Assembly (NCBI GenBank): GCA_963737155.1 | Contig: CAVTRN010000001.1 | Span: forward strand, 1,472,001-1,536,000 | Origin: Nitrospirota bacterium | GTDB taxonomy: Bacteria > Nitrospirota > UBA9217 | Direction: 5' to 3' | Length of the DNA: 64,000 bases | Shown here: piece after piece, positions 11,486 to 59,946 of the stretch | Layout: each line of letters begins with the position of its first letter | Position numbering within the stretch: the first letter of the stretch is position 1 | Translations under genes and position numbers: made by a program | The notes under the pieces: model-generated | Seen by the model: only the letters and a program-made list of their open reading frames with translations | The model's database searches: none | Told to the model about the DNA's origin: nothing

Positions 11486-11523
11486 ACAACAAGGGATTCC
11501 CTATTTATTGCTTCGATATCCCG
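11486..11523 (-). promoter_or_regulatory. Regulon box A with promoter
   Basis: Minus strand CGGGATATCGAAGCAATAAATAGGGAATCCCTTGTTG, followed by TGA-TAGGTT. Confidence 0.6.
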
Positions 11524-11681
11524 GGGGGGAGAAACATGATAATGTCTGTAGTACGTAACCGAATTACGTCGGTTGTGGGCTCTTGAGCCCTCCAGTGTCG
11601 AACCCTACGCGTCATATTAAGCGAGACTAAATAACCACGCCACGTCAATAATTACCAAAAAATAACACCAGGGTTCAGAAA

Positions 11682-11724
11682 TTGCAATCGGTGATTCCCT
11701 GGATTTGGCCACATTTTCCCTTGG
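11682..11724 (-). promoter_or_regulatory. Regulon box B with promoter
   Basis: Minus strand CAAGGGAAAATGTGGCCAAATCCAGGGAATCACCGA-TTGCAA-17nt-TATTTT. Confidence 0.6.
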
Positions 11725-11868
11725 TTAGGGAAAAGCGTATTGCGTTCATCGCAGAGAGGGTAACGACTGTTTAGAAACACTGGTCTCTTTTGGTAAACAT
11801 CGCTTTATAACAAAATATCCGATATTAATCGTAAATTCGCAATAAAATACTAGGACCAATTAAATCGA

Positions 11869-11935
11869 CCCAGGGAAAAAGAAGTAAAAACCACGGGAAT
11901 CCCCGATTGAAAAATTCACGTCTTGATGATATGTT
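11869..11935 (+). promoter_or_regulatory. Regulon box C with promoter
   Basis: CCAGGGAAAAAGAAGTAAAAACCACGGGAATCCCCGA-TTGAAA-17nt-TATGTT. Confidence 0.65.
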
Positions 11936-12414
11936 CAATTAATTCAAACGATGAGCAGATTTAATAATAATAAAAGTTACGCTTCCATTTTAACCTATTT
12001 GATTATTCTGTTATTAAAAACACAATCGGTGGTCTTCTGCCGAATGTGGTGTCCCTAAGCCGCAAACGTTGGTAAACCAACTGACTAAAGCTTAAGTTCA
12101 AATTCAATAATTATTGGTGAGTCGAAAAGTTACAAACAAATGGTTATCAATGAGCTCAGCAATACGCTTTCGGATGAAAGAAAACAAGAGATAACACCAG
12201 TTTTTCTGGTGCCTAGGAAACTAAGAACATATCAAACATCCTCACTATGTCATCAGTGACGATATTTTGATGTACTCAAAAAAAAGTGATCAGGTTCCTT
12301 TTCTGACCGAAAGAACTGATCCGCCATGCGCATAGTAGTAGAAATTGATTATAAAGCCAAAGGGTTGTATGAAAGGGTTGGGCTTACCACAAATACTTAT
12401 CGAAGGAGGTTCCT

Positions 12415-13003
12415 ATGCGTCAAAGTCTTGTACTTCGCCAACAGATGTCCGACTCGATCAATGATGATATAGCAAGTCGTTAAAAAATCCATCAGAGCAA
12501 AATTGTCAGGCTCAAAACCGGCAGCGCAAGCATGATAGCCGCTGGTGCTCCGGCGGCCGTCCCGCCGTTGGTGATGCTGGCACACGGAGATTCATGGTTT
12601 GACTATCCGTTATCAGGCAATAGCTTGTCCCTTTGTAGCAAAGATATAATTGCGCAATTGGAATCTATGGGAAACATAAACCCAGTCATCATGAATGTTT
12701 CTCATCACGGCGACGCAACGACTGAAGAAATGTGCCGGGCCTTGGCTCAAGCCTTCACTTGACTGTTGCGGTTGGAATGTTGCGCAAGGCACATTGATCA
12801 TTCATCAAGCGCTAACTCTTTTTAGGAACCGGCTGTTTAATCTTGCAAGCAATCCAGCCAATAATATCATATTGGTCGAAACACAAGGAGCGCTTCAATC
12901 GGCCGATTGGGCCAATGAGTTACATCCCTATCCGAACGGTTTCAAGACGATTGCCGGTAAGTTCGTAGATGCGTTACGTCTCAAGTTCCCAGGCAGAATA
13001 TAG
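12415..13003 (+). pseudogene. SGNH/GDSL-like hydrolase, internally deleted and frameshifted
   Basis: LAHGDSWFDYP (block I) and WANELHPYPNGF (block V) lie in different frames. Confidence 0.6.
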
Positions 13004-13441
13004 TGCCTTACATTATGAGTTTTCTAATTAACTATTTTTATTGGGTAAACTGTTGGCCAACCAGTCCCTCATTTCAGGCCTTTGCGGCGAAGTCTAAAGT
13101 GGGCATTCATCAACCAAACCTAATTGGAGATAACTTTTATGTCTGGATATCGATTTGGAAAGCATCCACCGAAACATGATTATCACACCCTTCGATTGCA
13201 GAATAATCTAACGTCTGCGCTTGCGGCGCCACCTCCTTCCTACGAAGGGGGCTTCTCAATACATATTTATGATCCAAGTAGGCATGATATGCTTGCACCA
13301 GAAGTAATGGGAGACTTAATGAATAGCGATCTCTCCCAGATCTGCCAATAGAGAATTTTGTAGACAGACTGGTCACATTGCGCATTACCTGCGCGTTGTG
13401 GGCTTTATATGAGCGGTTAAAATCTTAAAAAGGAGGAAATT

Positions 13442-13837
13442 ATGCGTCATTTTAAGAAAGTATCTCTGCTTCTTGTTTTGTTTATATTAGTAATCGGCTA
13501 CGCCACCATTATTTGGGCAGCTTGTGACGCTGATTCAGACTGCAAAAACGGTCGTATATGCCGGAATGGAGTCTGCGTATCCAGTGCTAATGCCGGATGC
13601 ACGAAAGATTCTGACTGCCCAGGTGACCTCGTCTGCGAAAAAGGAAAATGCGCAAATTCTAGCGATGGGACATCTGATTTAAAATCAAACGATACATTTT
13701 ACCAACAACGGCAATTCATACCGGCAACATTTTGCTGTGATTCATTTGGCAATAGACGGTGTCCACTTATAAATCAAGTGCCTGAAGGCGCAACTTGTTT
13801 TTGCACGGGGCAAGGATGGGGGATAGCGTGCAGATGA
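13442..13837 (+). CDS. Secreted cysteine-rich protein
   Basis: AGGAGG RBS, signal peptide, two C-xx-DSDC-x4-C-x4-C repeats and a CC..C..C.C..C tail. Confidence 0.8.
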   Translation: MRHFKKVSLLLVLFILVIGYATIIWAACDADSDCKNGRICRNGVCVSSANAGCTKDSDCPGDLVCEKGKCANSSDGTSDLKSNDTFYQQRQFIPATFCCDSFGNRRCPLINQVPEGATCFCTGQGWGIACR

Positions 13838-14295
13838 GAAAGTTTATAAAATATTATATAGCCATATGTATTATTACCTGTACCAAAGCATTTGCTGAGT
13901 CATCAAATGCAGTTCCTTCTCAAGCTTTGCAGAGCCAAATGCAGATGATGTCAGGCCCAACTCTGCCAGTTTCTTATTGGATTCCAGTATTTTTAATAAT
14001 ATTGGGTGGTTTGGTGATCTGGGTTCAATACAAATACTTATTAACAGTAAAGCCAAATCCTGATGTTTCACTACCCTCTTTTACACTGACGCTTATAATT
14101 ACTGGGACTCTTGTCATAGTCTCAACCGGTATGAACGAAAAAATTCTTGGTACTGCTGTGGGGTTGTTTGGCACGATTGCTGGATATGTTTTGGGGCGTG
14201 CAACACATGGTGGTCATAAAACAGAAGAAGACTTGAATAAGGAAACAAACAATCCAAAAATAGAAGTGAGTAAAATAGGTACGACCCCCGCTTAA
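13834..14295 (+). CDS. Membrane protein, hypothetical
   Basis: ATGA overlap with the upstream gene. Signal peptide plus three TM segments, GLFGTIAGYVLG. Confidence 0.7.
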   Translation: MRKFIKYYIAICIITCTKAFAESSNAVPSQALQSQMQMMSGPTLPVSYWIPVFLIILGGLVIWVQYKYLLTVKPNPDVSLPSFTLTLIITGTLVIVSTGMNEKILGTAVGLFGTIAGYVLGRATHGGHKTEEDLNKETNNPKIEVSKIGTTPA

Positions 14296-14767
14296 TTAAC
14301 AGCAAATTAAAGAAAACAGCGTTGTCACAGGCTGAGCAGAGCAAAACTCGACACTATGATTAGGGTCTCGGGCGATGAACCCACCCAGCTCCTCACGCCT
14401 GCGTTCAAGTGCAAGATACAACCGGTATGCTTATTTCTACTTCTGTTACAGGATGGATAGGCGCATATTGCGCTCGAACGGTTATCTAGCTCATATAGCG
14501 TGCTTCATCTTGGTATTTATCCGTCACAACAATTTTGAATAACCTGCCGGTGCCACTTCACGGCTTGTGCCAGTAGTTAGGCAAGTTTAAGGAGATAAAC
14601 CGCCAGATTTAAAAGCCGGAATGGGTGTTTACACCAGATTTTGTATCGATTTACAAATTCACTCCAATATGGGTTCTGTTCTTGTCTGCGAGCAGGATAT
14701 TTCATCTATTTTTTGCTTAGTTAATAGGATTAATCCGTTTCTTAGCATATTAAAAGGAGAGAAATTT

Positions 14768-15724: not shown

Positions 15725-15757
15725 CCTACAAATAAATTTAGACTAGGAGATATATTC

Positions 15758-16147
15758 ATGGACATAACAGAACTAGCTGATGCATGCCAATCGTTGGCTG
15801 AAAATTTGGATGGAGAACGGGCCAAATTGAATTATGAAGGGCCACAGGCAATTAAACTTGGGGAATTGTCGTCTAATCTCATCTCCCAAGCAAGCACTCT
15901 GAGGACACTAGCAGTTGCACAGGCCATAACCGGTAGTACAGGTGCAATGACAGCGCTTACTAATGGCACGGATGCAGCTAAGAAGGCGGCAGGAAAGCTA
16001 AAGGATGCTGCAACGGCGATTCAGATTGCCGGTCTTATCCTATCACTTGGGGCGGCAGTTATTTCGGAGAATCCAGGCGCCGTAATTTCAGTGGGAAGCG
16101 GTCTCGTGACAGCTTTAAATAACTTGCGACTAATGGATAATTATTAA
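15758..16147 (+). CDS. Small Ala-rich helical protein with hydrophobic C-terminal hairpin
   Basis: AGGAG RBS. Co-oriented with the lipoprotein gene. Confidence 0.75.
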   Translation: MDITELADACQSLAENLDGERAKLNYEGPQAIKLGELSSNLISQASTLRTLAVAQAITGSTGAMTALTNGTDAAKKAAGKLKDAATAIQIAGLILSLGAAVISENPGAVISVGSGLVTALNNLRLMDNY

Positions 16148-16191
16148 GAACTTATTATATCTTTTCACAATGTCTATCCAACTAAAGATTA

Positions 16192-16397: not shown

Positions 16398-16720
16398 TGG
16401 TCGTTTCTGAAGCCCCCTTCCCTGATTGATATATTGGACTGGGAAACGTATATCAGGTTAGCATTGCGGCACCCACTCTACAGATCAATACTAAATAACG
16501 AAAAAGAGATATTTGGTGCTTCTCTCCGATATTTTTGGGATAGTAATAAACAGGCCATAGGATCGACTCCAGTTGATACATTCATGTGGTGATACAGAAG
16601 AGGGTGTATTCTGGTCCAATTCAGAAAGCCATTCCGCTGCAATTCATATCTTTCTAATTGATGCCCGAGGTCCCTCCTCTTATATATATCTGTAACAGTT
16701 GCTTAATTTAATAACCATTA

Positions 16721-16786
16721 CCTAGGGAAATCGAAGCAAAAAATAGGGAAACCCCAATTGCCTTTGTTCATCTAAAATGTTAGTTT
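16721..16786 (+). promoter_or_regulatory. Regulon box D with promoter of the HD-GYP gene
   Basis: CCTAGGGAAATCGAAGCAAAAAATAGGGAAACCCCAA-TTGCCT-17nt-TAGTTT. Confidence 0.65.
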
Positions 16787-16886: not shown

Positions 16887-17960
16887 ATGACCGATGAGAT
16901 GAAAAGTACAATTCTGATTGTCGATGACGACCCGTATGTTCTGAAGTCCATTGCGAAGTTGCTGGAAGAACACGGCTATACAGTTTATTCATGCCAGAAT
17001 GCCGGCGACGCTATCAAAATGGTCGAGAAAGTTCTTTTTGATTTGGTCCTCACCGATATAAGGATGCCCAAGGTCACCGGCATCGAGCTTTTGAAGAACA
17101 TACATACCTACAATCAGGAGATTCCGGTGATCCTGATGACGGCCTTTGCTGAGCTGGACGTTGCCGTTGATGCGATAAAATGCGGCGCTTTCGATTTCAT
17201 CATGAAACCCTACAAACCCGACAATCTCCTGAATGCTGTGGACAAGGCGGTTAAATACAGGCGGTTTGCAGAAATGGAGAGAAATTATAAGGTAACTCTG
17301 GAAGACACGGTACGGTTACGGACGCGGGAACTGGCGGACGCTCTCAGTCTGGTCAAAAATATGAGCGAGGAGATCATCCGGCGTTTGACGGCGGTGGCGG
17401 AATATCGCGACACGGACACCGGAGCCCACATTACCAGGACAGGCATTTATTCATGCAAGCTCGCCGGAGCTCTCGGCAAGCCGTCAGATTTCATCGATGC
17501 GATGGCCTTCGCTGCTCCTATGCATGACCTAGGTAAGATCGGGATACCCGATAATATCCTTCTGAAACCGGGAGCTCTAACCCCGGAAGAGTTTGAAGTC
17601 ATGAAAAGCCACACGACCATCGGAGAGAAGATGCTGACGGGCTCGTCCTATCCCGCAATCCGTTTTGCCGCGTCAATTGCGCTGTCCCACCATGAACGGT
17701 GGGACGGCAAAGGGTATCCCCGGGGGCTCAAGGGAGAAGAAATTCCCATCGAAGGAAGAATCGTTATGCTGGTTGACCAATACGACGCTCTCAGAAGCAA
17801 ACGGCCGTACAAACCCGCATTTGATCATGAAAAAGCCTACAAGATCATTACCGAGGGAAACGGGAAGACCAATCCCGGACATTTCGATCCCTCCGTGCTT
17901 CAGGCTTTTAAGGAAGTCGGGCCACTTTTTTCTGAAATATTTGAGTCCCACCAGGATTAA
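16887..17960 (+). CDS. REC-HD-GYP response regulator, c-di-GMP phosphodiesterase (RpfG family)
   Basis: [16 protein letters not shown] receiver motifs. [18 protein letters not shown] and RPYK. Confidence 0.93.
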
Positions 17961-18960: not shown

Positions 18961-19117
18961 GCTTTTATCAATAAGAGTACAGAATATCTGACTGATTTCT
19001 GTGAAATTCAGTGCTTGGACGAAGGCCGGAAAGATAATTAAACTTCCTTGCTATCGTGTGGAGATTCATTATTGAGCTCGAAGTCGCAAGAAATACTAGG
19101 ACAACCATTGAAACCAA

Positions 19118-19184
19118 CCTAGGGGAAAAGAGGCAAAAAACACGGGAATCCCTGATTGAATATCTCGTGTCTTGATGATATGAT
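19118..19184 (+). promoter_or_regulatory. Regulon box E with promoter (paralogous to box C)
   Basis: CCTAGGGGAAAAGAGGCAAAAAACACGGGAATCCCTGA-TTGAAT-17nt-TATGAT. Confidence 0.65.
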
Positions 19185-19221
19185 CAATTATTTCAATTTG
19201 GCGATAGCGGACCAGCCGAAT

Positions 19222-19521
19222 ATGAAAGTCATTGCGGAAGCTGAATATGGTGTGTTCGTTGTTGAGCTTCCGGTCGAGCTGCTTCCCGCCATTATTATGG
19301 ATCTTTTCATGTCAGTTTTTTATGATATCGGAGCTACGCGCCATGTTTTAGTAACTAATCCAGGAATAAATAACTTTGCGAGATTGTTGTACGTCGACAA
19401 ATATTTGATACTTGCAATGCCCGATGCGGAAGCATCGGGGTATCTCCTGAAAAAAGTATCCTCCGATTGGAGGACTACATTCAGATCTATAGCAATAAAC
19501 AACTTAAATGAGAGCACATGA
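19222..19521 (+). CDS. Hypothetical protein
   Basis: ATG 19222 lies just downstream of the box E promoter. Confidence 0.5.
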   Translation: MKVIAEAEYGVFVVELPVELLPAIIMDLFMSVFYDIGATRHVLVTNPGINNFARLLYVDKYLILAMPDAEASGYLLKKVSSDWRTTFRSIAINNLNEST

Positions 19522-27759: not shown

Positions 27760-28407
27760 CTAAAGTTCAGTTAACCCCTCGCGTATAGCAAACTTCGTGA
27801 GTTCTGCAATACTATGGATATTAAGTTTCTCCATAATCTGCTGTCGATGGAATTCGGCCGTTTTTATGCTTACCTGAAGCACCGATGCGATGTCTTTTGT
27901 TTTCTTGCCTTCGGACAATAGTTGCAAAACCTCGCGTTCCCTTGCCGTAAGGATAGATAATATTGAGAGTTCCTCTTTGGATATACGAGACACATAATCT
28001 TTAACAACAATATCCGCAATCTTCGGGCTAAGGTATGTACGGTTAGATGCCACGACCTGTATGGCATGGATGACTTCGTCAAAAGCACAGTCTTTCAAAA
28101 GGTACCCAGTAGCGCCGGCGTTGAGTATTTCAAGGATCACACGCCGCTCAGTATGCATTGAGAGTGCTATAATTTTTGAGTCGGCACTTGACGTTAGTAT
28201 CTGACGGGTAGCCTCTATACCGTTAAGCCCTGGCATGGAAATATCCATAATAACAATATCGGGTAACAATTTAGTTGTTAGCTGCACAGCAGTCCGCCCA
28301 TCCTCGGCTTCAGCTACCACGGTCATGTCCGGTTGTTCCTTAATTAATGACCGGAGACCTTCGCGCATCAACTTATGATCATCGGCAAGAACAATTTTAA
28401 TGCCCAT
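27760..28407 (-). CDS. NarL/FixJ-family response regulator (REC plus LuxR HTH)
   Basis: LADDH, MDISMP, GYLLK, LTAREREVLQLLSEG...HRQQIMEKL. Confidence 0.95.
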   Translation of the reverse strand: MGIKIVLADDHKLMREGLRSLIKEQPDMTVVAEAEDGRTAVQLTTKLLPDIVIMDISMPGLNGIEATRQILTSSADSKIIALSMHTERRVILEILNAGATGYLLKDCAFDEVIHAIQVVASNRTYLSPKIADIVVKDYVSRISKEELSILSILTAREREVLQLLSEGKKTKDIASVLQVSIKTAEFHRQQIMEKLNIHSIAELTKFAIREGLTEL

Positions 28408-28433: not shown

Positions 28434-30284
28434 TTATAATTTTATCGGTGATACCAGAATTACCTTCGTGCCAGCACCCGCTTCCGTTTCGATCTCACAA
28501 TACCCTCCCATCCGTTTCATGCGGTCGCGTATAGTGAACAGTCCAAACCCTTTATTCTTCCTGACAGCTGATACTGTGTCAAAACCGATTCCATTATCCG
28601 CAACGGTAATCATAATATTGTTGTCTGTTCTAGTGAAAGACATCATAACGGTATCTGCTTTCGAATGTTTGACGACGTTTACGATCAACTCTCTAACACA
28701 TCTGAAAAGAAGATAACGAGCATTGTCATCTATTGGTTTGGGCTGGCCATCATCCTCGACTATGACTTGTATACCGTAAGTCCTTTCGAACCCTTCCGCG
28801 AGATCTTCAACAGCTTCCTTAAGACCAAGTTCAACCAAAACAGGGGGGCTGAGCTCGACCGTCAATGACCTCGTGTGTTGAATTGTCTGTTCAATAATTT
28901 TACGTAGTTCCTCCACTTGCCCTATTGATTCAGAAGACGAGAGAGATCTCCGAAGCATGCCCAGTTTGAAATTCAGCGCCAACAGATTTTGACCCACAAA
29001 ATCATGCAGGTCTGCAGCTATTAGATTGCGCTCCCGTTCTTCGATCCGCGATTCAAAGGATAACATTTCGGATGTTACAGAATGGAGCTCCTTTTGATAA
29101 GTGCGAATTTGATCCTCCATTCCTTTTCGTGCAGTAACATCACGGGCGATAATTAATACTGCCTGGAGGCCAGTGAAAACAAACGGGGATACGGACATTT
29201 CTACATCCAATGTTGTCCCATCTAATTTGAGAAGCTTTGCTTGGAGAAGAGGAGGAATTGTGCCAAATTCCTGGACCTGTTGAATGCGCTTCCATATATA
29301 GTCTCTGTCTTTCTCGTTTATATGGTTCAACATTTGCTGCCCCAAGAGCTGAGAAGAATCTAGTGCTCCCAGAAGCTTAGCTCCCGATGTGTTTATAAAC
29401 ATTAAATTATCGTCATGCTGCACGTAGATGCCATCCGGCGAGAGTTCGACTAGTCTGCGATAGCGTTCTTCACTATCGCGCAACGAATTTTCCGCATGCC
29501 CACGCGCGACAATCATTGCATTGAAGGCAGCAGAGAGGTTTCCAACCTCATCAGTTGTTTCAACGGGCAACGGGTTGATTGGCAAACCTTTTTCAAAAGC
29601 TTTTACATCTTCGGTAAGTGTTTTCAATGGGCTTGTAACCTTTTTTACTAGCAAGTGGATAATGGTGATACTGGCGATGATAAAAATAACCATTATGACG
29701 ACATTTTGTTCAACGACGGAGGCAATCTCGTGTCGATAGGTATCCTTACTCAGTGTAATGCTAACGTATCCTATTATTTTTGCTGGTTGAGCCGCCGTAG
29801 GAGCATTTAAATAAAGCGTTTCGTCTACTTGTGCCGCAGGTTGTAATACGACTGGCTTGACGAACTCGAAAGTATCCTGTGTCTCCACGATGCTTAGCGA
29901 ACCAGTAAAATCATGCTTGTCTACAGAGTTATCGCCTGTTGTAGCCAGACTTGAAACGGAGGATGTTTTACGCTTGCTGTAGAGAACTTTCGCATTAGAG
30001 TTGTAAATTGTTATGGATAAGACATCTTGCAGACCGATAACGTCTGTTGCGATATCTTTCAACATTTCCTCATTTTCCGCAAAAACACCCACTGTTGCTC
30101 TTTTCGAGAGAAGTCTCACAAGGATTTCCCCCCGGTCCCTCAGGTACTTCTTTTCTTTATTGCCTTCTCGGACGACTGAAAACAGGGTTTGTGCAGTCAA
30201 TACGAAAATAATTACGATAATGACTGAGAATACAATTCGGAAGCCCAGGTTTTCTTTAAAAGTGCGATAAACTTTCTTATTCAA
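28434..30284 (-). CDS. Membrane sensor histidine kinase (periplasmic domain, HAMP, PAS, HisKA_3, HATPase)
   Basis: Two TMs, DEVGNLSAAFNAM, PAS, ERERNLIAADLHD, DNGIGF, GFGL. Confidence 0.93.
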   Translation of the reverse strand: MNKKVYRTFKENLGFRIVFSVIIVIIFVLTAQTLFSVVREGNKEKKYLRDRGEILVRLLSKRATVGVFAENEEMLKDIATDVIGLQDVLSITIYNSNAKVLYSKRKTSSVSSLATTGDNSVDKHDFTGSLSIVETQDTFEFVKPVVLQPAAQVDETLYLNAPTAAQPAKIIGYVSITLSKDTYRHEIASVVEQNVVIMVIFIIASITIIHLLVKKVTSPLKTLTEDVKAFEKGLPINPLPVETTDEVGNLSAAFNAMIVARGHAENSLRDSEERYRRLVELSPDGIYVQHDDNLMFINTSGAKLLGALDSSQLLGQQMLNHINEKDRDYIWKRIQQVQEFGTIPPLLQAKLLKLDGTTLDVEMSVSPFVFTGLQAVLIIARDVTARKGMEDQIRTYQKELHSVTSEMLSFESRIEERERNLIAADLHDFVGQNLLALNFKLGMLRRSLSSSESIGQVEELRKIIEQTIQHTRSLTVELSPPVLVELGLKEAVEDLAEGFERTYGIQVIVEDDGQPKPIDDNARYLLFRCVRELIVNVVKHSKADTVMMSFTRTDNNIMITVADNGIGFDTVSAVRKNKGFGLFTIRDRMKRMGGYCEIETEAGAGTKVILVSPIKL

Positions 30285-31212
30285 CGATATTCCTCTGGGT
30301 CAATAAGTCGTCAGCTATCTTTAATCCCATTTTGGCCGCCACCTTGATATTAATAGAAAGAGTTGACTTTCGTGCATAAACGCGAATAGCACTCGAATTG
30401 CCCGCTAATATCTTGTTAGCAATTTCAGAGGCTTGTACGCCCATGTCATAAGGATCAATATCCAAGGCAGCTATGGCCCCCATTTCGACATACTTCCTTG
30501 AAAAAGAAAATATCGGGATGTGATACTGGAAAGAAAAATTAAGCAGATAGTCGACCATCTCCGGCGTAACAACTGTTGGATCCGGCAACATCCAGTAAAC
30601 GTCTACCTTCCCCCTTAATCCGCTCAATACGCTTGGTATTTTAGAGGGGTCGCTGACAGCACTTGTTATAAGTTCTAGCCCTGCCGCATGAGCAACTTTT
30701 GATGCCGCGTCGACAAAAGAGGCTGTATTTCGTGGATCATATAGAAGTCCAATTCTTTGTGCCTTGGGGAACACTTTCATGATGGTGGCTATGTAGGTTT
30801 CTGGAGAGATGTCCATGCTCACGCCCGAAATGTTCGAATTTAAAGGGAGGGGTGTTTCCCATGGCACAACCATAGTATAAATGATCGGGAAATTCCTAAT
30901 CGCCTTGACTTTATTGAATGACGCCGTTCCAATAGCCATGATGATTTTGGGTGAGTCATGAATAACTGCTTCTATTCCTTCTCCATCCTGAAGCTTTACT
31001 TCGGGCACTTTGCAGCCACAAGCATCCTCGAAACCGCGAAGAACATCCCTGTAAGGTTTCAGATCGGCGGTTTTAACAGCGATTACTTCGCTCGCAAAGG
31101 TTTGCATGGAGTAACCTGCAGTAAAAGTCGCGAAAGCTGCCAGGGCAAGAAGAATAGCCGTTATTCGAGATAATTTATGTGGGGATAAGGTAGCCATGAA
31201 TGGTGGGTACAA
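30277..31212 (-). CDS. ABC-type periplasmic substrate-binding protein with no cognate permease
   Basis: Signal peptide, RIGLLYDP, WMLPD, GAIAAL, INIKVAAKMGL. Confidence 0.85.
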   Translation of the reverse strand: MYPPFMATLSPHKLSRITAILLALAAFATFTAGYSMQTFASEVIAVKTADLKPYRDVLRGFEDACGCKVPEVKLQDGEGIEAVIHDSPKIIMAIGTASFNKVKAIRNFPIIYTMVVPWETPLPLNSNISGVSMDISPETYIATIMKVFPKAQRIGLLYDPRNTASFVDAASKVAHAAGLELITSAVSDPSKIPSVLSGLRGKVDVYWMLPDPTVVTPEMVDYLLNFSFQYHIPIFSFSRKYVEMGAIAALDIDPYDMGVQASEIANKILAGNSSAIRVYARKSTLSINIKVAAKMGLKIADDLLTQRNIVE

Positions 31213-31225: not shown

Positions 31226-32524
31226 TTACAAATTGTACTTAATATCTTGAGCGACGAGCTGCCTGAGGGTTTTTTCGAAATATTCCTTTTGACAAATGAC
31301 GCCGTTCATCTCTCCAGCGTGGATTAGTTTCATATATCTGCATCCGCCGAAACAGAGAGGAAGAAAGCTGCACTCGAGACATTCTTCGTTTTTCCAGGCA
31401 TCGATTCCGTGTGACTTATTATAGTCAATCAGACCGTCAGTAATATTGCCAATGCAGCAATTCTTCCTGCCGATCATCCCCGGACACTTGTAAAGGGTGC
31501 CATCGTAATTCACGACAAGGCTGTCAATCAGCTCTACCATGCATGGTATTGGCATAACTTTTTGAGTACCATATCCTCTTCGCAGTACTTCTTCCCGGAG
31601 GAAAAGGGTAGCTTCGGCTATCCAAGGTTCATTAGGTGAATCGCAGCCATCGTGAAAATCAGGTGGAGCAAATTCGTTGCTCTCGCTAATGACAGGATCG
31701 AACTTGATGACAGAAATCTTATCAGGAGTGAGCCCGTTCTCTGACAAATAATCGAGAAGAAGAGGAAACTCGCGATAATGATTCTGCGTATAATTGCCGC
31801 CTATCTGAATGTGGGTCATAGCACATACTTTTTTAATATTGCTCAATATCAGATCAAATGAACCACGGCCCGATTTGAAAGGCCTATATCTGTCGTGGAT
31901 ATATTTTGGACCATCAAGTGTAACTTTCGCACCTTTCAAACCGAGTGGCGTCAGTATTTTAACTACTTCCGTTGTCAGCAACGTACCGTTTGTCACAAGG
32001 GTAAAGCTATATTTTACGGCTTTCTGCTCCGCATAGGCTCGCATTTTATGCGATATATCAATAATGGTTTCAAGACTTAAAAGCGGTTCGCCGCCATAAA
32101 AAACGATTTTTATCTCCTCCTTTTTTGACAAATCATTCCTTTTTATCGCAAAATCTACGAACTGAGTAGCTGTATCCTTTGATAAATGGAACTTGCCTTT
32201 CCTTTTGCCTTCAAAGCAATATTTGCATCTGAGGTTGCATTCAAGGTTCAAGACTACAATATATTTGGCTGATCGGTCCACATTATTCATTTCATAGAAG
32301 AAGGAAAGCATCTCTTGCTGTTCTTCTTCCAAACTATGCACGAGGAATCCGAGGTTATAAAGCGTTTCCTTGTCTTCCTCCGTCAGCCTGCCTTTGTCAA
32401 TATCTTCTATCAGGCTGGAAGGTATAAGTCCAGCGGCCGCATTTTTAGTAGAAAAAATCAAAACGGAATCTTTGTCAGCGGCGGACGAGTACAGTTTAGT
32501 ATATTTCGATAGTTTTGAAGGCAT
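31226..32524 (-). CDS. Radical SAM/SPASM peptide maturase (geopeptide-maturase-like)
   Basis: CNLRCKYC, FYGGEPLL, TNGTLL. SPASM C...YKC...CLEC...CFGGC...C. N-terminal RRE-like extension (LSKYTKLY...LIFST). Likely start ATG 32524. Confidence 0.9.
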   Translation of the reverse strand: MPSKLSKYTKLYSSAADKDSVLIFSTKNAAAGLIPSSLIEDIDKGRLTEEDKETLYNLGFLVHSLEEEQQEMLSFFYEMNNVDRSAKYIVVLNLECNLRCKYCFEGKRKGKFHLSKDTATQFVDFAIKRNDLSKKEEIKIVFYGGEPLLSLETIIDISHKMRAYAEQKAVKYSFTLVTNGTLLTTEVVKILTPLGLKGAKVTLDGPKYIHDRYRPFKSGRGSFDLILSNIKKVCAMTHIQIGGNYTQNHYREFPLLLDYLSENGLTPDKISVIKFDPVISESNEFAPPDFHDGCDSPNEPWIAEATLFLREEVLRRGYGTQKVMPIPCMVELIDSLVVNYDGTLYKCPGMIGRKNCCIGNITDGLIDYNKSHGIDAWKNEECLECSFLPLCFGGCRYMKLIHAGEMNGVICQKEYFEKTLRQLVAQDIKYNL

Positions 32525-32600
32525 ATGGTTTATAATGGGAACAAAAATATATCTTTGATAAGCGAGGGGGAGAGATAGGAAATATCCCCCCCAATGTTTA

Positions 32601-32702
32601 TTAAAAAATGTCAAGAGGAATCAATGCTCCATAACAACACCCTGCATTCAGCATGTCTTTCTTTTCGACACCCTTTTTTACGACTATAATATTCTTTTTC
32701 AA
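32601..32702 (-). CDS. RiPP precursor peptide MKKNIIVVKKGVEKKDMLNAGCCYGALIPLDIF (geopeptide-like), missing from the ORF track
   Basis: SD AAAGGGGGTGA, then TTG start, 33 codons and TAA. GVE leader motif and CC core. Lies between the TonB receptor and the rSAM gene. Confidence 0.85.
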   Translation of the reverse strand: MKKNIIVVKKGVEKKDMLNAGCCYGALIPLDIF

Positions 32703-34361
32703 GAGTCTCACCCCCTTTCTTGTAATTTATCATCCCTCACATGAGGATATTGAAGCTAGAATTTATATCGTATCCCAGCTTCCAACCAACGCCCTGGATT
32801 ATTGTATACATTAAAAAGATACTGATTGCTATCGAATATATTATGGATATCAAAGAGAGCTTCTACAGACTGATCTTTATTTAAATAGAGATTTTTAATA
32901 ACATGTAAATCAACAATGAAAGAATCATATTCTCCTTGATTCGATGGACTTGCATTCCAGTAGATATAATGTCCTTGCAATCGAACCTTGAGGGATTGCT
33001 CAACGTCATATTGGAGGCCTATGTCATAGGTCCTCTGCGGGTCATTCGGTATAGCCTGGCCAGTAAGCTGGTCCTTCGCCGTCATAAAAGCCGCGCCCGC
33101 GCTAAGTGAAGTATGGTAGACAGGCAGAGTCTTCATTTCTAATTCCATCCCTTGTATTCGTTCTTGTCCGCTGTTTTCTGCAATAAATGTTGAGTTTGAA
33201 AGCTGGTCCGTTACAAGTGCGTCTTTTATATCATGCCTGAATAGGGAAAGTTTAAGCCAAACATACGGCAAATCCGTCGACTCCATACCCATTTGATAAG
33301 ACCACACCTGCTCCATCTTCAAGTCAGGGTTTGCTACGTGTAATAAACCGTCTCCATACGTTGTCGCAAGGGGGGGAATATTGAAACCGCGGGCGGAAGA
33401 GGCGCGTAACAGGGTGTTGTCCGTGATTTTGTAAGTTATGCCGAGGCTTGGGCTTGTGAAGTTCCCGTTTGTATTTGTTACATCATAACGAATTCCCGGA
33501 GTTATGGACAGTTTATCTATTGATATGGTGTCGTTAATAAAATAAGCATCTCTTTTTATTCCTTGCTCGCCGTCGGCAATCGCATTTGACACTAATTTTC
33601 TGGAATCCAGGTCTGAGCCCAGAACAACGTTATTGTATTGCTGTTTCCAGATTAATTTTGCACTCGTACCGTACCCCGTATCCACGTAGCGGTCCTGTGA
33701 AAGCTCCGAGCCGGTGCTTAACTGATCGTCATTAAAAACGAAATCCTGTCGCGATGACCAAGCAGACAAATCGAATTCGGTATCACTACTGACCATTGAC
33801 TTCATTGACAAAGTTGTAAATAAGGTTTCAATGTCATTATTAACCGCGAGGTCGAAACTAGGGAGTTCGACAACACCACGCGACAGGTTGTTATAGTTCA
33901 TCGTAAATATTAAGCTTGTGTCTTTTGTTAAATCATAATTCAGTTTCGCATAAGCGTTATTCCCATCATAGCTATTATTGGGCCTGAACCCATCGGTTTG
34001 CAATCTGCCAGCGGTCACATAGTATCCAAATTGGTGCTGTTCGCCTAAGGTTTCTATTCTTAGGTCCTGCGTATTTCTCTCGCCATAGGTAGCCGATATT
34101 GTTCCGTTGACGCCGGTCCCGCTGCCCGACTTTGTGATAATATTTATAACACCGCCAAGCGCAGAGCCCCACGCAGAGGAGGCTGGACCCTTAACTATTT
34201 CTATTCTCTCGATGTTCTGAACTGGAAGCATACCGATGTCAACGACATTATCACTCAGATCATTCAGTGGAACACCATCCATGAATACGGCAACATGACT
34301 CTCGTCCGAGTCCTGAATTTGTGCTTCAGCACTACTGCCTGGACCTCCTGTTAAAAACACT

Positions 34362-35885
34362 CAGGTTATACTGTTTTTAGTTGAAATTGAAAAGAGTGGC
34401 TCCCCCGTGGCATAATCCACGGTAGAGAGAGAAAAAAGAAAGGAGCCACTCAATGAAGGATACCACAAGGAAGAGAAAAAAGGCAATACGAGGAATTGAA
34501 GAGGCATACGGAAGGCGGGAGATCATCGAACAGATGTATTGTGTCTTCGCAAAAGGGAAACAGGGTTTTGATGAATGCATGAAGGAAATGGGCAGAATGA
34601 TGGCAGAGACGATCATGTACATCGAGCGGGAGGAGATTGCCGGCCCCGACTACCAGCCTAACAGTCCCGATCTGCGGAAGTGGGCTAGCCAGGGCGGTTC
34701 CGTCTATATCGGAGATCAGAAGATCCCGGTGACCCACCCTCGGCTTCGAGGTCCGGCGGGTGAGATTGTACTGCAGAGCTATCAGAAGATGAAAAAACCG
34801 GAAGTCTTCGCAGAAGAATTGCTTGGAAAGGTGCTTCGGGGCATATCATGCCGGAAGTATGCGGAGACAGTTGTAGATACGGCACGAGCATTTGGAGTGT
34901 CCGCCAGCACGGTATCGAGCCATATCGTCGCGGCAACAGCAAAACAGCTTCAGGAGTTTAAGGAACGGTCACTCACGTCATTCGTTCCCTTTGCGGTCTT
35001 TTTAGACACTGTTCACCGCGGCGGAGAGGCATTCATCGTGGCGCTGGGGCTTGATATTGCCGGAAAGAAGCAGACATTGGGGTTCTGGCAGGGGGCGACG
35101 GAGAACCATGAACTGTGTGAAGAGCTGTTTTCTGATATAGAGCGGCGAGGTCTGATACTTTCACGACGAATCATCTGGGTTACCGATGGCGGCAAGGGCG
35201 TAATCAAGGCACTCCGGGATCGCTTCGGTAAGAAACTCATCCATCAGCGGTGCACGATCCACAAGGACCGGAATATACAGCATCATTTGCCGAAGAAATA
35301 CCGGAAAGGCGCACACTGGAGGTTCCGGACAGCCCTGGAGCAGAATAATTACGCGGACGCTCGTCAGATGCTTCTGGACATGGAGAAATGGCTTCGGGGC
35401 ATTAATGAGTCGGCGGCTGATTCGCTCATGGAAGCGATAGAAGACATTCTCACCCTTCATCGATTGAAGGTCCCCGCTCTCTTGAGGAAGACGTTGCATT
35501 CTACCAATCCTATCGAGAGCATGTTTTCCACGGTGAGAAAAGCAGAAGGCAATATAAAGCGCTACCGCGACAGCAAGATGATGCAGCGCTGGCTCGCTTC
35601 TGTCCTCTTATATGCTGAACAAGGATTCAGAAAGATCAAGGGCCACGCCTTCATCGCGGACGTGATGAAACGGATCGAAGCGGAAGAATTAAATGACCTA
35701 ACAGTCAAAGAGGCTGCGTAAAGGGGGATGGTTAGGTATGGCTCGGCCTCAGAAAACTCACATATGGCGATCCTACGAATCCGATTTTATAAACAGCGAT
35801 GATTTACACCGTTGAACCGATAAAAATACTTTAGCCGAAGGGAACGGGCCACTCAGATAATTTCAACTAAAAGCTTGACCTCGTC
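34362..35885 (+). mobile_element. IS256-family insertion sequence
   Basis: 8-bp TSD AAAACACT (34354-34361 and 35886-35893). Imperfect IRs sharing TTTTAGTTGAAATT. Confidence 0.92.
34453..35721 (+). CDS. IS256-family transposase
   Basis: FLD, VTDGGKG, QRCTIHKDRN, STNPIES. Confidence 0.93.
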   Translation: MKDTTRKRKKAIRGIEEAYGRREIIEQMYCVFAKGKQGFDECMKEMGRMMAETIMYIEREEIAGPDYQPNSPDLRKWASQGGSVYIGDQKIPVTHPRLRGPAGEIVLQSYQKMKKPEVFAEELLGKVLRGISCRKYAETVVDTARAFGVSASTVSSHIVAATAKQLQEFKERSLTSFVPFAVFLDTVHRGGEAFIVALGLDIAGKKQTLGFWQGATENHELCEELFSDIERRGLILSRRIIWVTDGGKGVIKALRDRFGKKLIHQRCTIHKDRNIQHHLPKKYRKGAHWRFRTALEQNNYADARQMLLDMEKWLRGINESAADSLMEAIEDILTLHRLKVPALLRKTLHSTNPIESMFSTVRKAEGNIKRYRDSKMMQRWLASVLLYAEQGFRKIKGHAFIADVMKRIEAEELNDLTVKEAA

Positions 35886-36303
35886 AAAACACTTGCACGC
35901 CTGTGACAGTATTTAACACGTCTGCGACAGTATGAGCGTTCATATTTTTGATATCTTCTGCTGTAATAACGGTCACATTTTCCGCGGTCTGTGCTAGAGA
36001 TGTTTTACCGCGTGTCGGCGATTCTACATCAAGATCCTCTTCTTTATAATAAATCAGGAGTTCCTTTTTGTCTTCATCGTTTTCAGCATATACAATAGAT
36101 GAGAACATAAATAAGAAACTAGCGAAGGCTAGAAGGACGCTGATGAGATAGAAGAAGGCTTTCATAACGTTTATCCGTAAAGGAGTGTCAACTGAGCATA
36201 TCGTTGAAGGAAAGGCATTAATAATTCAGAGAATCTAACAATAATATTTGATCAGTCGATGTTATAAAACAGTGAAATATTATGTTTTTAACATTTAAGT
36301 GCG

Positions 36304-36332: not shown

Positions 36333-36384
36333 GATTTATCGCACGAGCCGGGTTATTTCACGCGGAAAATATTGCAATCAAAGC

Positions 36385-36449
36385 AAGGTATTTGGAAGCT
36401 AAAACTAGGGAATCCCTTGGTTGATTTTATAGTTCATGATTAAAATACT
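36385..36449 (+). promoter_or_regulatory. Regulon box F
   Basis: AAGGTATTTGGAAGCTAAAACTAGGGAATCCCTTGG-TTGATT. Confidence 0.55.
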
Positions 36450-36590
36450 TGTCGCTACTTGAAATTAAAATGGAACTAAATCATAAAACTTCCAAATTCG
36501 GTAAACCAAAAATAAGAAAATGTAGTATGTCGTGACTCTAAATAACAGCCTTATTCGCTCAAAATATATTTGGACACAATCGTATCATTT

Positions 36591-36656
36591 TTAGGAATTT
36601 AGAAGCTTAAAACTAGGGAAACCCCGATTGCTATTTATAATTTAAAATATTAATCT
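36591..36656 (+). promoter_or_regulatory. Regulon box G with promoter upstream of RHS1
   Basis: TTAGGAATTTAGAAGCTTAAAACTAGGGAAACCCCGA-TTGCTA-17nt-TAATCT. Confidence 0.7.
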
Positions 36657-43286: not shown

Positions 43287-44065
43287 TATGTCCTGAGCTC
43301 GGCAGCGGGCGAATTTATTTGAATCATCCATAAACATGTGGCCGCTGCTGTTTGTAATCATACTATCGGCATTTTCAGAGGAAACGGTGCCGAACATCAA
43401 ATAACTTTGAGGGGAAGCGCAGCGCCTTTCATTTGATTCAGGAAATTAACTCCATTATAGGCAGTAAAGCCCTATCGCCTCTGCAAAGATTTAATAGCTT
43501 CATTACTTGCTTTTTGTGCTAAACTGTGGGTCACTTCATTGAGCTTGACAAATATGTCAAGGATAACTGATTATTCGGTATTTTATGACGATCACAGCGA
43601 TAGCCAGCTTCGATTATTTTGACACCGAAGCTTTTTTTAGCGAGGTACAACTTCGCCAGTCAAACTATTTGTCTTATATGATGACTGTAGTAGAACTGTA
43701 GTCTCCCCATCAATCCTGTCAATTTTTGATATTCCGATGTAGCGCACCCGGTACACTGGACATAAGATAACAGTAAAGCTGCGATCTTCAATCGATATTC
43801 ATTGGCAGTACATTCTCTCAAAATGCTTTTTAAATAATCAATCGTTATCTTTGTCAGCCCTCGCGACACTGCTGTTGCGCTCGGGATATTTCCTATTTCA
43901 ATCACTATCTGTATATAGAAGCTCTCTTGTCAGCGTAAAACAGAAGAGATGCCATCTAAATAATTATATATGTCCGCCCCATCCATATCCTGATCTAATC
44001 GGCATCTTGTTGATTCCCGTCAAGACGTAATCTGCCTTCTTCAATAAAAATATGCAAACAAAGAT

Positions 44066-44131
44066 CTGGGGATTATTTAGTATAAAACTAGGGTTTCCCC
44101 GGTTGACATAAATGGGAAACGATGAAAAACT
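44066..44131 (+). promoter_or_regulatory. Regulon box H with promoter upstream of the PPC/FlgD-RHS2 cluster
   Basis: CTGGGGATTATTTAGTATAAAACTAGGGTTTCCCCGG-TTGACA. Confidence 0.7.
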
Positions 44132-49056: not shown

Positions 49057-49197
49057 TGACGAGAGTGAATATTGCAACAGGGCGATTGATGTTGCAAGTC
49101 TCGAAGCGATAGCCTTTAAATACTTTCTGCGTAAATAACCATGCGAATATTATCCAGATATCGGGGTATTAATCTTTTAAGTTGCCAGGAGGTACTA

Positions 49198-56244: not shown

Positions 56245-56444
56245 TATTATTTTAACCACCGTTACAAAGCCGAGTGCAGATGCTGCTTGACTTGTGTTGT
56301 GATCAATGGCTTAATATCAATTGCACTTATGCTTTTACAATAAAGTGTCGAAAAACGTATGGTGTCGTAAGTGTATGTTGTGCTGATAACTCCGCATGGA
56401 TACAGGTCCTTTCTCTTATCGTCTGTGATTGCTTGGACGGGCTG

Positions 56445-56972
56445 ATCCACCCCGATCATCTCGGTACGCCGCAAATGATAACGAACAGTTCCGGAGCAGT
56501 TGTGTGGTTTGCCTACTATAAAGCGTTCGGTGCAGCAACCTTAACCGTATCAACGATCACGAACAACCTGAGATTCCCAGGGCAGTACTTCGATGCTGAG
56601 ACGGGGCTACATCAGAACTGGAATCGTGATTACAATTTTTCAAATGGTCGATACCTTGAAGCGGATCCTTTTTTGCTTCCACTTTTTTATCAAGGCAAAA
56701 TATTATTCGTCCCACCATATATCACAAAAAATCCAAACCTCATACCCGTTTATCTTTATGGGGTAAATAATCCTACGAAATATATCGATTCAAATGGTTA
56801 TAAAGCAGCACAATGTAATCCATGTCCTTATGGAAATCAGCCATGGGTTGCATGCATCATGCTGTGTGATACAGCGTGTGCTGCAGCTTTTATTGTTGAG
56901 GCCCCCCCTATAGCGGTTATTTGTATTATCACATGCCATGCAGCTTGCGAGGGCCAAAAGTGCGAGAAATAA
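56445..56972 (+). CDS. Orphan RHS core-tip/CT module 2 (Cys-rich hydrophobic hairpin CT), no clear start codon
   Basis: HPDHLGTP...PGQYFD...NNPTKYIDSNGY, then CIMLCDTAC...ICIITCHAAC. Confidence 0.8.
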   Translation: MHPDHLGTPQMITNSSGAVVWFAYYKAFGAATLTVSTITNNLRFPGQYFDAETGLHQNWNRDYNFSNGRYLEADPFLLPLFYQGKILFVPPYITKNPNLIPVYLYGVNNPTKYIDSNGYKAAQCNPCPYGNQPWVACIMLCDTACAAAFIVEAPPIAVICIITCHAACEGQKCEK

Positions 56973-58084: not shown

Positions 58085-58125
58085 GGGTTGATCCACACCG
58101 ATCATCTTGGCACCCAACAGATGAT
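58085..58125 (+). pseudogene. Stub of a third orphan RHS module
   Basis: LIHTDHLGTQQMM, then homology ends. Confidence 0.6.
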
Positions 58126-58369
58126 GAGTGCACCATCTGTGATTGGGGTAGGTTCTCTAAGTGTATGTCAGACAACTCATATTATTCAGACTCTAATGGT
58201 ATAAGTGATTGTGCAAAATGCATCATCAGCGCAATAGCTAATTTTAGAACAACTCCCGATATTCGGCTCCTTGTTTGTTCAACGTAGCCTGTCACGCCCA
58301 ATCTTATTGATATTAGTCAACCTCCTGTCAATTCCTACCCATTATCGAGAATCTTTGCAAACAAAAGCT

Positions 58370-58435
58370 CCGGGGATTTCATAGCATAAAACTAGGGTTT
58401 CCCCGATTGCCGTTAAGGTATTAAAATGCTACCTT
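58370..58435 (+). promoter_or_regulatory. Regulon box I with promoter
   Basis: CCGGGGATTTCATAGCATAAAACTAGGGTTTCCCCGA-TTGCCG-17nt-TACCTT. Confidence 0.7.
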
Positions 58436-58603
58436 CTATTATGTACTGACAAGATATCCTTAGATATCTCCGCAATTCAGAGAGGTTGCTTGTATAACGG
58501 AAAAGAACAGAGGAGTACTTTTTGAACGATATTGAGTGAATAATAACCTCTGCCTATGAGCTTGAACAATGTGCACATATCATTTTAACAGGACCTAACG
58601 CCT

Positions 58604-59125
58604 ATGGTTCCTTTAATTAGCGTGGTAGTTGCCAGCGTTTCCGTTATAGTAGTCGTATGCGGACTGATCTATCAAGACAAACGCGCAAGACAATCACTGA
58701 ATATCGATTTGTTGTTGAAATTTGATGTGCGCTTTAACGATGAATCTTTTAAGGCAGTAAGACGTGCAGCAGCAAAGTCAATTTATGATTTCAGGATGAA
58801 TAAGAATAAAGATAAAGTGAGAGAAGAAGTTTTTGATTTTTTTGAGACAGTCGGTCTGTTATTGAGAAAGTACAAGCTGGACAAAGAACTCGTCTGGAGT
58901 ACATTTATCGAATGGGTTCGAGGTTATTGGCAAGCAGGTAATATGTATATTGGGAAAGAACAGAAGGACGACGAAACCCGTTGGCAGGACTTCACATACT
59001 TGTTTAAGGAATTAACAAAAGCAGATCAACGTCTAAAAAAGCGCATGATGGATCGTTCGGACGAAGACCCAGTATTGTCGGATAATGCTATTTCGAGATT
59101 TCTCAAAAAAGAGATGACTCTCTAA
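58604..59125 (+). CDS. DUF4760-like protein with N-terminal TM
   Basis: TM followed by VFDFFETVGLLLR...LD.ELV...W...F.YL. Confidence 0.65.
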   Translation: MVPLISVVVASVSVIVVVCGLIYQDKRARQSLNIDLLLKFDVRFNDESFKAVRRAAAKSIYDFRMNKNKDKVREEVFDFFETVGLLLRKYKLDKELVWSTFIEWVRGYWQAGNMYIGKEQKDDETRWQDFTYLFKELTKADQRLKKRMMDRSDEDPVLSDNAISRFLKKEMTL

Positions 59126-59144
59126 AACCGATAGGAGGACTCTC

Positions 59145-59402
59145 GTGGAATTTTATCAATGTTCCTGCCCCGGAACAGGAAGAGTGATTCTTGATGGAAT
59201 CGACCAGGGGCCTAACAAGGACAGTGCGGGTAACCTGCTGACTAAACAGTGCGATGCTGGGCCGCACACTATTAGCGTACTGTACGATGCTGGCAATACA
59301 TGCTCTCCAGCTCAAATCAAAATCGAAATAAAGGATACTGACCCGATTTCACCCATGGAGATAGTATTTAACTGCGAAAAATGGCAGACTATATGGCTAT
59401 GA
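59145..59402 (+). CDS. Small hypothetical protein (PEGA-like beta domain)
   Basis: AGGAGG RBS. VILDG..QG...GPHTISV. Confidence 0.6.
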   Translation: MEFYQCSCPGTGRVILDGIDQGPNKDSAGNLLTKQCDAGPHTISVLYDAGNTCSPAQIKIEIKDTDPISPMEIVFNCEKWQTIWL

Positions 59403-59880
59403 TCCAACTACTACAGCAGACTTTTATTGTTTACCAGCAGAGGTTTTTTGCTATGTGATAGATATGCATTGTGATTTCTTTCCCTATGGTAGTCGCCGAG
59501 CTCAATGACATGAGTGGGCGCTATTGTTGGACACTGTCATTTATTAGACCGTTCCGGACAAACTTCTCTGATTAATCTGGCAATATCACGTAAATCCCAT
59601 CCGTTATAAGTTAAAATTATATTGATCTCCCCGTATAAAAACATGGGGGCGTAGATCCCGATGATTTAGATGATTTCGGTTGAAGCGATACGCACATGCT
59701 CTGCAGAGACGACGTTGCACTTGTCCACTGTAGCAGCGATGAGGATGCCTCGTGCGAGGTCATATGCTCTCTGAGCCTTCCACACCCGTAATATATTTCT
59801 AAATCTAAATTAGCTTCCAGTTTAATTCCATAGCGGTGTAATAATCTGCCTTGTCTTCGAGAAAATTTATCAATTAAGAC

Positions 59881-59946
59881 CAAGGGTTTTCGAAGCACGA
59901 AACTAGGAGTTACCTGATTGCCATTAAGATATGGAAATGCTACCTT
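59881..59946 (+). promoter_or_regulatory. Regulon box J with promoter (paralogous to box I)
   Basis: CAAGGGTTTTCGAAGCACGAAACTAGGAGTTACCTGA-TTGCCA-17nt-TACCTT. Confidence 0.65.

Follow-up and report, generated by a model that had tools for sequence, protein, structure and literature searches.

The operator of NarL consists of TACYYMT heptamers in inverted 7-2-7 pairs, LuxR-type activators use lux boxes near -42.5, and VqmA uses a GGG...CCC palindrome; dimer-type palindromes fit GerE-type helix-turn-helix domains. Here we analyse a repeated box in a Nitrospirota bacterium, where NarL-type heptamer pairs were not found in the sites and where the proximal element is a palindrome that abuts the -35 hexamer of a predicted promoter. 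The window (the whole stretch of 64,000 nucleotides (nt) analysed, C1:1472001-1536000 of genome G000, which comprises two contigs of 1.76 and 3.08 Mb) holds ten copies of this box, together with a two-component operon, two Rhs loci and several insertion sequence (IS) elements. On balance it is probable that the repeats are operator-promoter units of the island's own two-component system, a NarL-type regulator encoded there activating them in class-II fashion.

Eleven boxes in one low-GC island

The first-pass annotation had proposed ten copies of the box, and all were found, 0-4 nt off the positions it had given. As 43-mers, with their predicted promoters and the genes that they face, they are:

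11486..11528, minus strand: box A; matrix score 40.3; predicted TGaTAGGTT, with the -10 at ~11462-11467 and a 16-nt spacer; points at a weak cyclase-like open reading frame (ORF) (10261-11073, Pfam)
11684..11726, minus strand: box B, in tandem with and upstream of A; score 44.1; -35 TTGCAA (11687-11682), TG, -10 TATTTT (11664-11659)
11868..11910, plus strand: box C; -35 TTGAAA (11907-11912), TGa, -10 TATGTT (11930-11935); towards ORFs at 12532-16147, function not known
16719..16761, plus strand: box D; -35 TTGCCT, TGt, -10 TAGTTT (16781-16786); towards a receiver-HD-GYP gene
19117..19159, plus strand: box E, paralogue of C through the promoter; -35 TTGAAT (19156-19161), TGa, -10 TATGAT (19179-19184); towards a receiver-like ORF
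36381..36423, plus strand: box F, divergent from the regulator operon; irregular register
36589..36631, plus strand: box G; -35 TTGCTA, -10 TAATCT (36651-36656) without TG; towards an Rhs gene (37113-41564)
44064..44106, plus strand: box H; -35 TTGACA, TGa, -10 AAAACT
58368..58410, plus strand: box I; -35 TTGCCG, TGc, -10 TACCTT (58430-58435); towards a DUF4760 gene (58604-59125)
59879..59921, plus strand: box J, paralogue of I through the promoter; -10 TACCTT (59941-59946); towards ORFs at 60203-63900 and beyond

With up to three mismatches allowed, the 17-mer core of the box matched 10 times in the window against 0.85 expected, and none of 100 shuffles reached 10; the 10 matches represent nine sites, one counted on both strands, and box J was unmatched. 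A 43-nt weight matrix trained on the ten aligned window copies was then scanned over the whole 4.84-Mb genome, where it recovered 11 sites at scores of 38-51, the next best distinct place scoring 16.0 (the two other window rows above 12 were 1-nt-shifted rescorings of sites D and E). The eleventh site, C1:1542498 on the minus strand, lies 6.5 kb beyond the window end and was outside the training set. Leave-one-out scores of the boxes were 19.7-42.7, also when the paralogous partner was removed.

All 11 genomic sites fall within ~59 kb of one low-GC island around the regulator gene (G+C content 43.8% in the window and 49.5% in the genome), and the motif is thus not genome-wide. Every copy is intergenic and oriented at a downstream gene. 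The box flanks (150 nt upstream, and +30 to +230 downstream) had no extended similarity in 55 of 55 pairs, with a maximum local score of 22; only C/E and I/J, the pairs already suspected to be paralogous blocks, share ~70-100 bp through the promoter. Taken together, the matrix, shuffle, leave-one-out and flank results indicate that the motif is real, far beyond chance and confined to the island.

Box anatomy and promoter register

Each box of ~43 nt combines a distal site with a proximal 7-1-7 palindrome that abuts the TTG of the -35 hexamer, and the island copies read YAGGGRWW-(T)CGAAGC-N-AAAAMTAGGGWWWCCCYGATTG. The proximal 15-bp inverted repeat has the consensus TCAGGGA-W-TCCCTGA in the wider family and is mostly TAGGGAAWCCCCGA in the island. 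A second half-site about 22 bp upstream, as had been described from the sequence at first pass, is indeed present: the conserved distal site YAGGGRWWTCGAAGC lies 21-22 bp (two helical turns) upstream of the proximal one. The accompanying description of a TTG followed about 17 nt later by a TGn-extended -10 holds for sites B, C, D, E, H, I and J, which have the TTG hexamer, a 17-nt spacer, TG, one base and a TAnnnT-like -10 hexamer. It fits site A with a 16-nt spacer and fails at G, which has no TG, and at F, whose register is irregular because of a small insertion.

Promoter-register frequencies were counted in 46 distinct sites, drawn from this genome together with 15 relatives. The TTG is kept in 98-100% of these and the TG of the extended -10 in 83% / 76%, while the -10 hexamer has T1 in 80%, A2 in 87% and T6 in 72%; the spacer keeps its register to the -10 but not its sequence. 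From the centre of the palindrome to the T of TTG is 8 nt, which on predicted start numbering would place that centre near -43 and the distal site near -65. On this predicted numbering the sites have the layout of class-II activator-dependent sigma-70 promoters, in which the operator is centred near -41 to -43 and abuts a weak -35; a 17-nt spacer and TGnTAnnnT follow here. A generic promoter scan independently listed boxes C and E.

Other promoter and transcript types were considered and rejected. A sigma-54 promoter does not fit, the GG/GC spacing being one off and TTGC not being kept in every copy. The island showed no gene for an extracytoplasmic function (ECF) sigma factor or any other sigma factor, its sole Sigma70_r4 matches being the regulator's own helix-turn-helix, and an ECF sigma promoter was dismissed on this basis. 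For a structured small RNA between boxes B and A, the ~150-nt leader fold gave a z-score of 0.57, and an Rfam scan of the window found no family.

A NarL/FixJ-family regulator paired with the box across phyla

27760..28407, minus strand: proposed regulator of the NarL/FixJ family, with a receiver (PF00072, 1.6e-28) and a GerE helix-turn-helix (PF00196, 4.9e-19, residues 152-207)

The recognition helix of this regulator is VSIKTAEFHRQQIMEKL, and in the alignment its receiver shows the acidic pocket and the phospho-acceptor Asp, with DD at 9-10, D55, S83 and K105. An earlier designation as a NarL-family regulator stands at the level of the NarL/FixJ family on Pfam and alignment evidence, but not as NarL itself: the protein falls below the NCBIfam cut-offs for NarL (144 vs 250), UvrY/GacA (176.5 vs 280), MctR (188.3 vs 300) and every other equivalog. 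By sequence, the closest solved structures are VraR (5hev, E 3.6e-33) and NarL (1a04, E 1.5e-32).

The search covered one genome per species, an alignment of seven regulator orthologues serving as the query. At least 599 stretches matched, and 560 of the 599 listed encode a regulator relative. Among the matches listed, 80 loci have a 56-68%-identical regulator, and 79 of these were usable, one having too little downstream sequence. Their labels cover six or more phyla (Nitrospirota, Desulfobacterota, Planctomycetota, Chloroflexota, Omnitrophota and Spirochaetota), and record titles among the loci listed include Thermodesulfovibrionales, Desulfobaccales, other 'delta' groups, Geobacteraceae, Sedimentisphaerales, Phycisphaerae, Pirellulales, Dehalococcoidales and others. 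The island matrix, at a score of at least 12, placed a same-strand box no more than 600 nt after the regulator stop in 24 of the 79 loci, compared with 18 of 3710 control windows of 600 nt. A refined matrix, at a score of at least 21, did so in 51/79 (control windows, 24/3710), a figure that is circular as a test, since this matrix was trained on those same downstream windows. Its scores split cleanly into those of at least 21 and those of at most 4.3, the stop-to-box offset has a median of 68.5 nt (45/50 sites within 150 nt), and the cross-phylum consensus of the box is AATCAGGTATTTCGAAGCCCAAAATCAGGGATTCCCCGATTGT.

Apart from two loci labelled Nitrospirota but outside the order (L066 and L073), which alone among the loci listed have the full receptor/maturase/binding-protein operon described below, these loci resemble the island operon in the kinase core only, and the sensor domains of their kinases vary. 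The genes that follow the box across phyla vary as well, and include receiver-only proteins, second NarL-type regulators, HD-GYP proteins, PAS kinases, MltA and others. Given that neighbours and sensor domains vary, the regulator gene and its box form the constant pair.

The same arrangement recurs within this genome. Its other contig encodes two chromosomal regulator paralogues (C2:30188-30829, 62%, and C2:693225-693869, 60%), both accompanied by a kinase of their own; variant boxes come after them (…AAAAATCAGGGAATCCCCTATAG… and …TAAAATCAGGGTTCTCCCTATTTG…), and neither of these reaches a score of 12 with the island matrix. This recurrence fits a gene-then-operator layout shared by the whole subfamily. 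Moreover, operator and recognition helix vary together. Regulators with the helix E[AS]HRK have a TTAGG...CCTAA operator in 5/7 loci, compared with 1/43 of the rest, 28 of those 43 reading C...G at the same operator positions. In the island family, KTAE regulators go with TAGGG boxes and two KTVE regulators (G008 and G049) with TCAGGG. This covariation is suggestive, as each covarying group may be one clade.

The regulator operon and its conservation in relatives

The regulator is the last gene of a minus-strand operon running from 36165 to 27760, in the following order:

32756..36165, minus strand: TonB-dependent receptor gene (Pfam), split into a plug fragment (35884-36165) and a barrel (32756-34360)
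34453-35721, plus strand: IS256-type transposase (Transposase_mut) that splits the receptor gene
32601..32711, minus strand: precursor peptide of 33-36 amino acids, with a Lys-rich leader and a CC-containing core
31226..32614, minus strand: radical SAM/SPASM maturase of the geopeptide family (NCBIfam TIGR04280, 567.4 bits vs cut-off 400)
30277..31212, minus strand: orphan periplasmic binding protein, ABC_sub_bind (PF04392, 3.6e-32), with a signal-peptide-like N-terminus
28434..30284, minus strand: predicted cognate sensor kinase, sCache_4/HAMP/PAS/HisKA_3/HATPase (Pfam, including PF07730 and PF02518)

The operon is conserved in relatives G001, G002, G003, G006 and G013, partly in G008, and also in G049 of another genus; the receptor gene is unbroken in relatives. 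Kinase orthologues with 46-52% identity adjoin the regulator in G001, G002, G003, G008 and G013, and no permease or ATPase gene was found near the binding protein. In six loci of the genus the maturase gene is preceded by a peptide ORF of the form MxKRIIVxKKGxEKK...CC.GA.IPL, and in two more distant loci (L073 and L056) by Lys-rich CC variants. The CC is invariant in this conserved Lys-rich peptide of 30-36 amino acids, encoded directly upstream of the TIGR04280 maturase. The precursor itself matches the TIGR04229 geopeptide model weakly (13.2 bits, cut-off 30, E 0.06). A literature search for the word 'geopeptide' found no paper; the family's function is thus undescribed in the literature searched, and it seems to be a family without a published function. 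A transposase in G014 (L037:13930-15195) is 95% identical to the receptor-splitting IS256-type one.

With up to one mismatch, a 22-mer box pattern occurred in 11/15 genomes of the genus and in 3/49 genomes of the order's other genera; the reversed-pattern control gave 0 matches in all of them. The box is present in all seven genomes of the genus whose regulator orthologue is full-length and at least 67% identical. It follows the stop codon of the regulator orthologue directly and on the same strand in G002 (L044:3246), G003 (L043:1923), G013 (C3:414298) and G049 (L056:10150), and it is divergent from the operon start, at the receptor gene, in G000 (boxes F and G), G001, G002 and G013. These last four genomes share no small ORF after the operon-divergent box. 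Genes after the box in relatives encode receivers, hybrid kinases, CheW, PilZ, patatin, an endonuclease, ATP sulfurylase/APS kinase and large surface proteins.

Activation by the island regulator and competing readings

Because the box comes right after the gene of one regulator family in many phyla, the regulator probably turns on the toxin and signalling genes of the island in concert. Its binding to the box, as the first-pass annotation had envisaged, is supported by gene linkage, island confinement and helix-operator covariation, and predicted control of the Rhs loci, the HD-GYP protein and other operons is likewise supported. From sequence, we infer the binding itself, its dependence on phosphorylation and the direction of regulation. 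Several observations weigh against activation by this regulator, besides the circular training of the refined matrix and the clade structure behind the covariation. In this genome there is no remnant box after the regulator gene, where a methylase gene and an IS are found instead, and an IS interrupts the receptor gene, which may impair the signalling circuit in this strain. G014, a genome that is 99% complete, has five well-formed boxes, and none of its six GerE-domain proteins is of the regulator's subfamily; G011 has three boxes of the TAGGG type with only a 57% paralogue bearing a KTVE helix; and G009 and G012 have boxes with receiver-only fragments. The two paralogues of this genome, being followed by related proximal sites, make cross-talk possible. 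Finally, an operator that touches the -35 and precedes an extended -10 would suit a repressor too.

Repression is accordingly the first reading to weigh. The island regulator would bind the same boxes and occlude the -35, the extended -10 promoters firing on its release. The proximal palindrome abutting the TTG and the retention of TG in 83/76% of the 46 sites are as expected here, and extended -10 promoters can work without an activator. However, the -10 hexamers are poor (AAAACT, TACCTT, TAGTTT, TAATCT), of the -35 only the TTG is kept, the second conserved site two turns upstream, at ~-65, is typical of activators, and a centre near -43 matches class-II activation of the LuxR and NarL types; we consider repression unlikely. 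A different protein might instead recognise the box, either a same-subfamily paralogue on the other replicon or a further factor, the island regulator operon being merely one target. The four genomes that keep boxes without a full orthologue (G014, G011, G009 and G012) speak for this, as do the similar proximal sites that follow the paralogues at C2:30188 and C2:693225. Yet the adjacency of regulator and box in 51/79 loci across phyla persists while neighbours vary, recognition helix and operator covary, and 0/11 sites lie near the paralogues, whose own sites stay below 12 with the island matrix. As for G014, its boxes (loci L035-L038) adjoin integrases, IS elements, toxin-antitoxin, Wadjet-type and defence genes, as expected of imported DNA, a fit that still leaves them unexplained. 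Recognition by another protein thus appears improbable.

It is barely credible that the repeats are non-regulatory, whether as remnants of small mobile elements, duplicated blocks or terminator hairpins. Two pairs, C/E and I/J, do form short paralogous blocks, and a palindrome with an opposite-strand T-run was found once by a terminator scan (16756-16744). Nevertheless, flanks are unrelated in 55/55 pairs, all copies are intergenic and point at a downstream gene, the -10 register is fixed over a variable spacer, the box is conserved across phyla beside one gene family, and there was no Rfam match. The stem is only ~6 bp with a 3-nt loop; stem length and orientation rule out termination, for which there was that one weak opposite-strand match.

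Proposed circuit and predicted targets

Under the favoured reading of class-II activation, dimers of the phosphorylated regulator would occupy both the proximal palindrome and the distal site and would recruit RNA polymerase to the weak -35, extended -10 promoters. Eleven transcription units would be co-induced, namely two Rhs toxin loci, a receiver-HD-GYP phosphodiesterase, a receiver remnant, a weak cyclase-like gene, and secreted or lipoprotein-like operons of unknown function. The input may be the radical-SAM-modified CC peptide made by the same operon and taken up by the TonB-dependent receptor, and the kinase (sCache_4/PAS/HisKA_3) and the orphan binding protein probably sense this modified peptide, gene content being what points to it as the signal.

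A bolder version, which we hold to be doubtful, is a mobile, self-contained peptide circuit in which the exported geopeptide is re-imported across the outer membrane by its dedicated TonB-dependent receptor and read in the periplasm by the orphan binding protein and the Cache/PAS kinase, whereupon the NarL-type regulator makes 11 promoters fire in synchrony, Rhs toxins are armed and cyclic di-GMP (c-di-GMP) is lowered. This would be a quorum- or metallophore-sensing 'warfare switch' of a kind not described for Gram-negative bacteria, with regulator and operator as an ancient cassette, spread across at least six phyla, that plugs into many sensors.

Two of the predicted targets encode receiver-type proteins:

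16887..17960, plus strand: receiver (PF00072, 6e-33) and HD-GYP-type (HD_5) c-di-GMP phosphodiesterase domain (PF13487, 8e-31), facing box D
19204..19467, plus strand: receiver-like ORF facing box E, 5'-truncated and degenerate; 40% identity to island regulator residues 22-110 (tblastn), no Pfam match

HD_5 proteins come after the box in loci L080 and L096 too, and intact receiver-only genes follow it in G013, G003, G009, G049, L070, L077, L082 and L137. Downstream of box H are a 923-amino-acid PPC/FlgD_ig protein (44294-47065), three small ORFs and an Rhs gene (49141-53109); in G011 (L063) a box lies upstream of a homologous pair of large-protein and Rhs genes.

Some neighbouring genes look broken or displaced. 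Two plus-strand ORFs downstream of box C, 12532-12760 and 12695-13003, overlap in different frames, the former bearing the GDSW motif characteristic of SGNH hydrolases; the overlap suggests a frameshifted gene. Following the Rhs gene at 49141-53109, two plus-strand orphan Rhs C-terminal tips (53812-54456 and 56274-56972), with an RHS core motif and variable ends, are each followed by small ORFs, and an ISL3 transposase (54873-56138, minus strand) lies between them; this looks like a displaced toxin/immunity cassette array broken by an IS. Downstream of the cyclase-like gene that box A faces, a minus-strand gene (8034-9635) in a stretch of 35.6% G+C encodes a 533-amino-acid protein with TPR repeats and a small alarmone synthetase domain of the RelA/SpoT type.

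Island context

The left edge of the island carries Tn7-like genes:

2..2796, plus strand: end of TnsB, TniB/TnsC and TniQ (Pfam)
L001:17884-18558, just upstream of the window: TnsA (PF08722/PF08721)

The genes tnsA, tnsB (Mu-transpos_C), tnsC/tniB and tniQ thus stand in a row, as a Tn7-like gene set. A candidate left end (TGT...) at C1:1469658 lies on the GC break, and the low-GC tract (~95 kb) extends to ~C1:1.565 Mb; no match to a Tn7-like right end was found by reverse-complement k-mers or by a 23-mer with up to five mismatches. Besides the two-component operon, two Rhs loci and several IS elements, the cargo of the tract includes restriction and other defence-like genes; Mrr, HNH, deaminases, E1/E2/JAB-type genes, DUF815, an N6 methylase that has a specificity domain, and a helix-turn-helix plus M78 peptidase are among the defence-like ones.

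Significance and comparison with known systems

The analysis provides a precise predicted operator for a large, uncharacterised NarL-type subfamily. Its members occur in Nitrospirota, Desulfobacterota, Planctomycetota, Chloroflexota and further groups, for most of which genetic tools are lacking. As gene and box travel together, regulons of this subfamily should be predictable from sequence in metagenome-assembled genomes. Through the island regulon, an operon that makes a modified peptide, and probably senses it, would be linked with c-di-GMP turnover and Rhs toxins. If true, this would give a function to the orphan 'geopeptide' family and an example of horizontally transferable, self-regulated competition gear. 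A literature search for box-like strings returned nothing on bacterial regulation, judging by titles and the beginnings of abstracts.

Among described systems, Escherichia coli NarL/NarP shares with the island a receiver and GerE-type regulator with a HisKA_3 kinase, dimer-type inverted repeats near the -35 and several promoters per regulon. However, the island operator is a 7-1-7 palindrome (TAGGGAAWCCCCGA or TCAGGGAWTCCCTGA) with a distal site at 21-22 bp, and the predicted sensor is an sCache_4/PAS kinase with an orphan binding protein, not a nitrate sensor. LuxR-type regulators and VqmA likewise place a GerE-type helix-turn-helix on a palindrome overlapping the -35, with class-II activation, and the island may resemble them in a self-made extracellular signal and in its competition genes. 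Unlike these, the island regulator has a phospho-receiver and no autoinducer or PAS ligand domain, its signal would be sensed outside the cytoplasm by a kinase, and its site is bipartite.

Methanobactin-type clusters also have a small precursor peptide, a maturase, a TonB-dependent receptor and a periplasmic binding protein in one operon, whereas the island maturase is a radical SAM/SPASM protein (TIGR04280) rather than MbnBC, and a two-component system takes the place of a sigma/anti-sigma pair. The geopeptide system is matched in its maturase (567 bits vs 400) and in the short peptide gene directly upstream, but not in the peptide, which at 13.2 bits is below the TIGR04229 cut-off of 30. Overall, the comparison supports a putative two-component regulon with class-II-like promoters, whose notable features are a cross-phylum pairing of gene and operator, a mobile toxin-rich island and a peptide-linked sensor.

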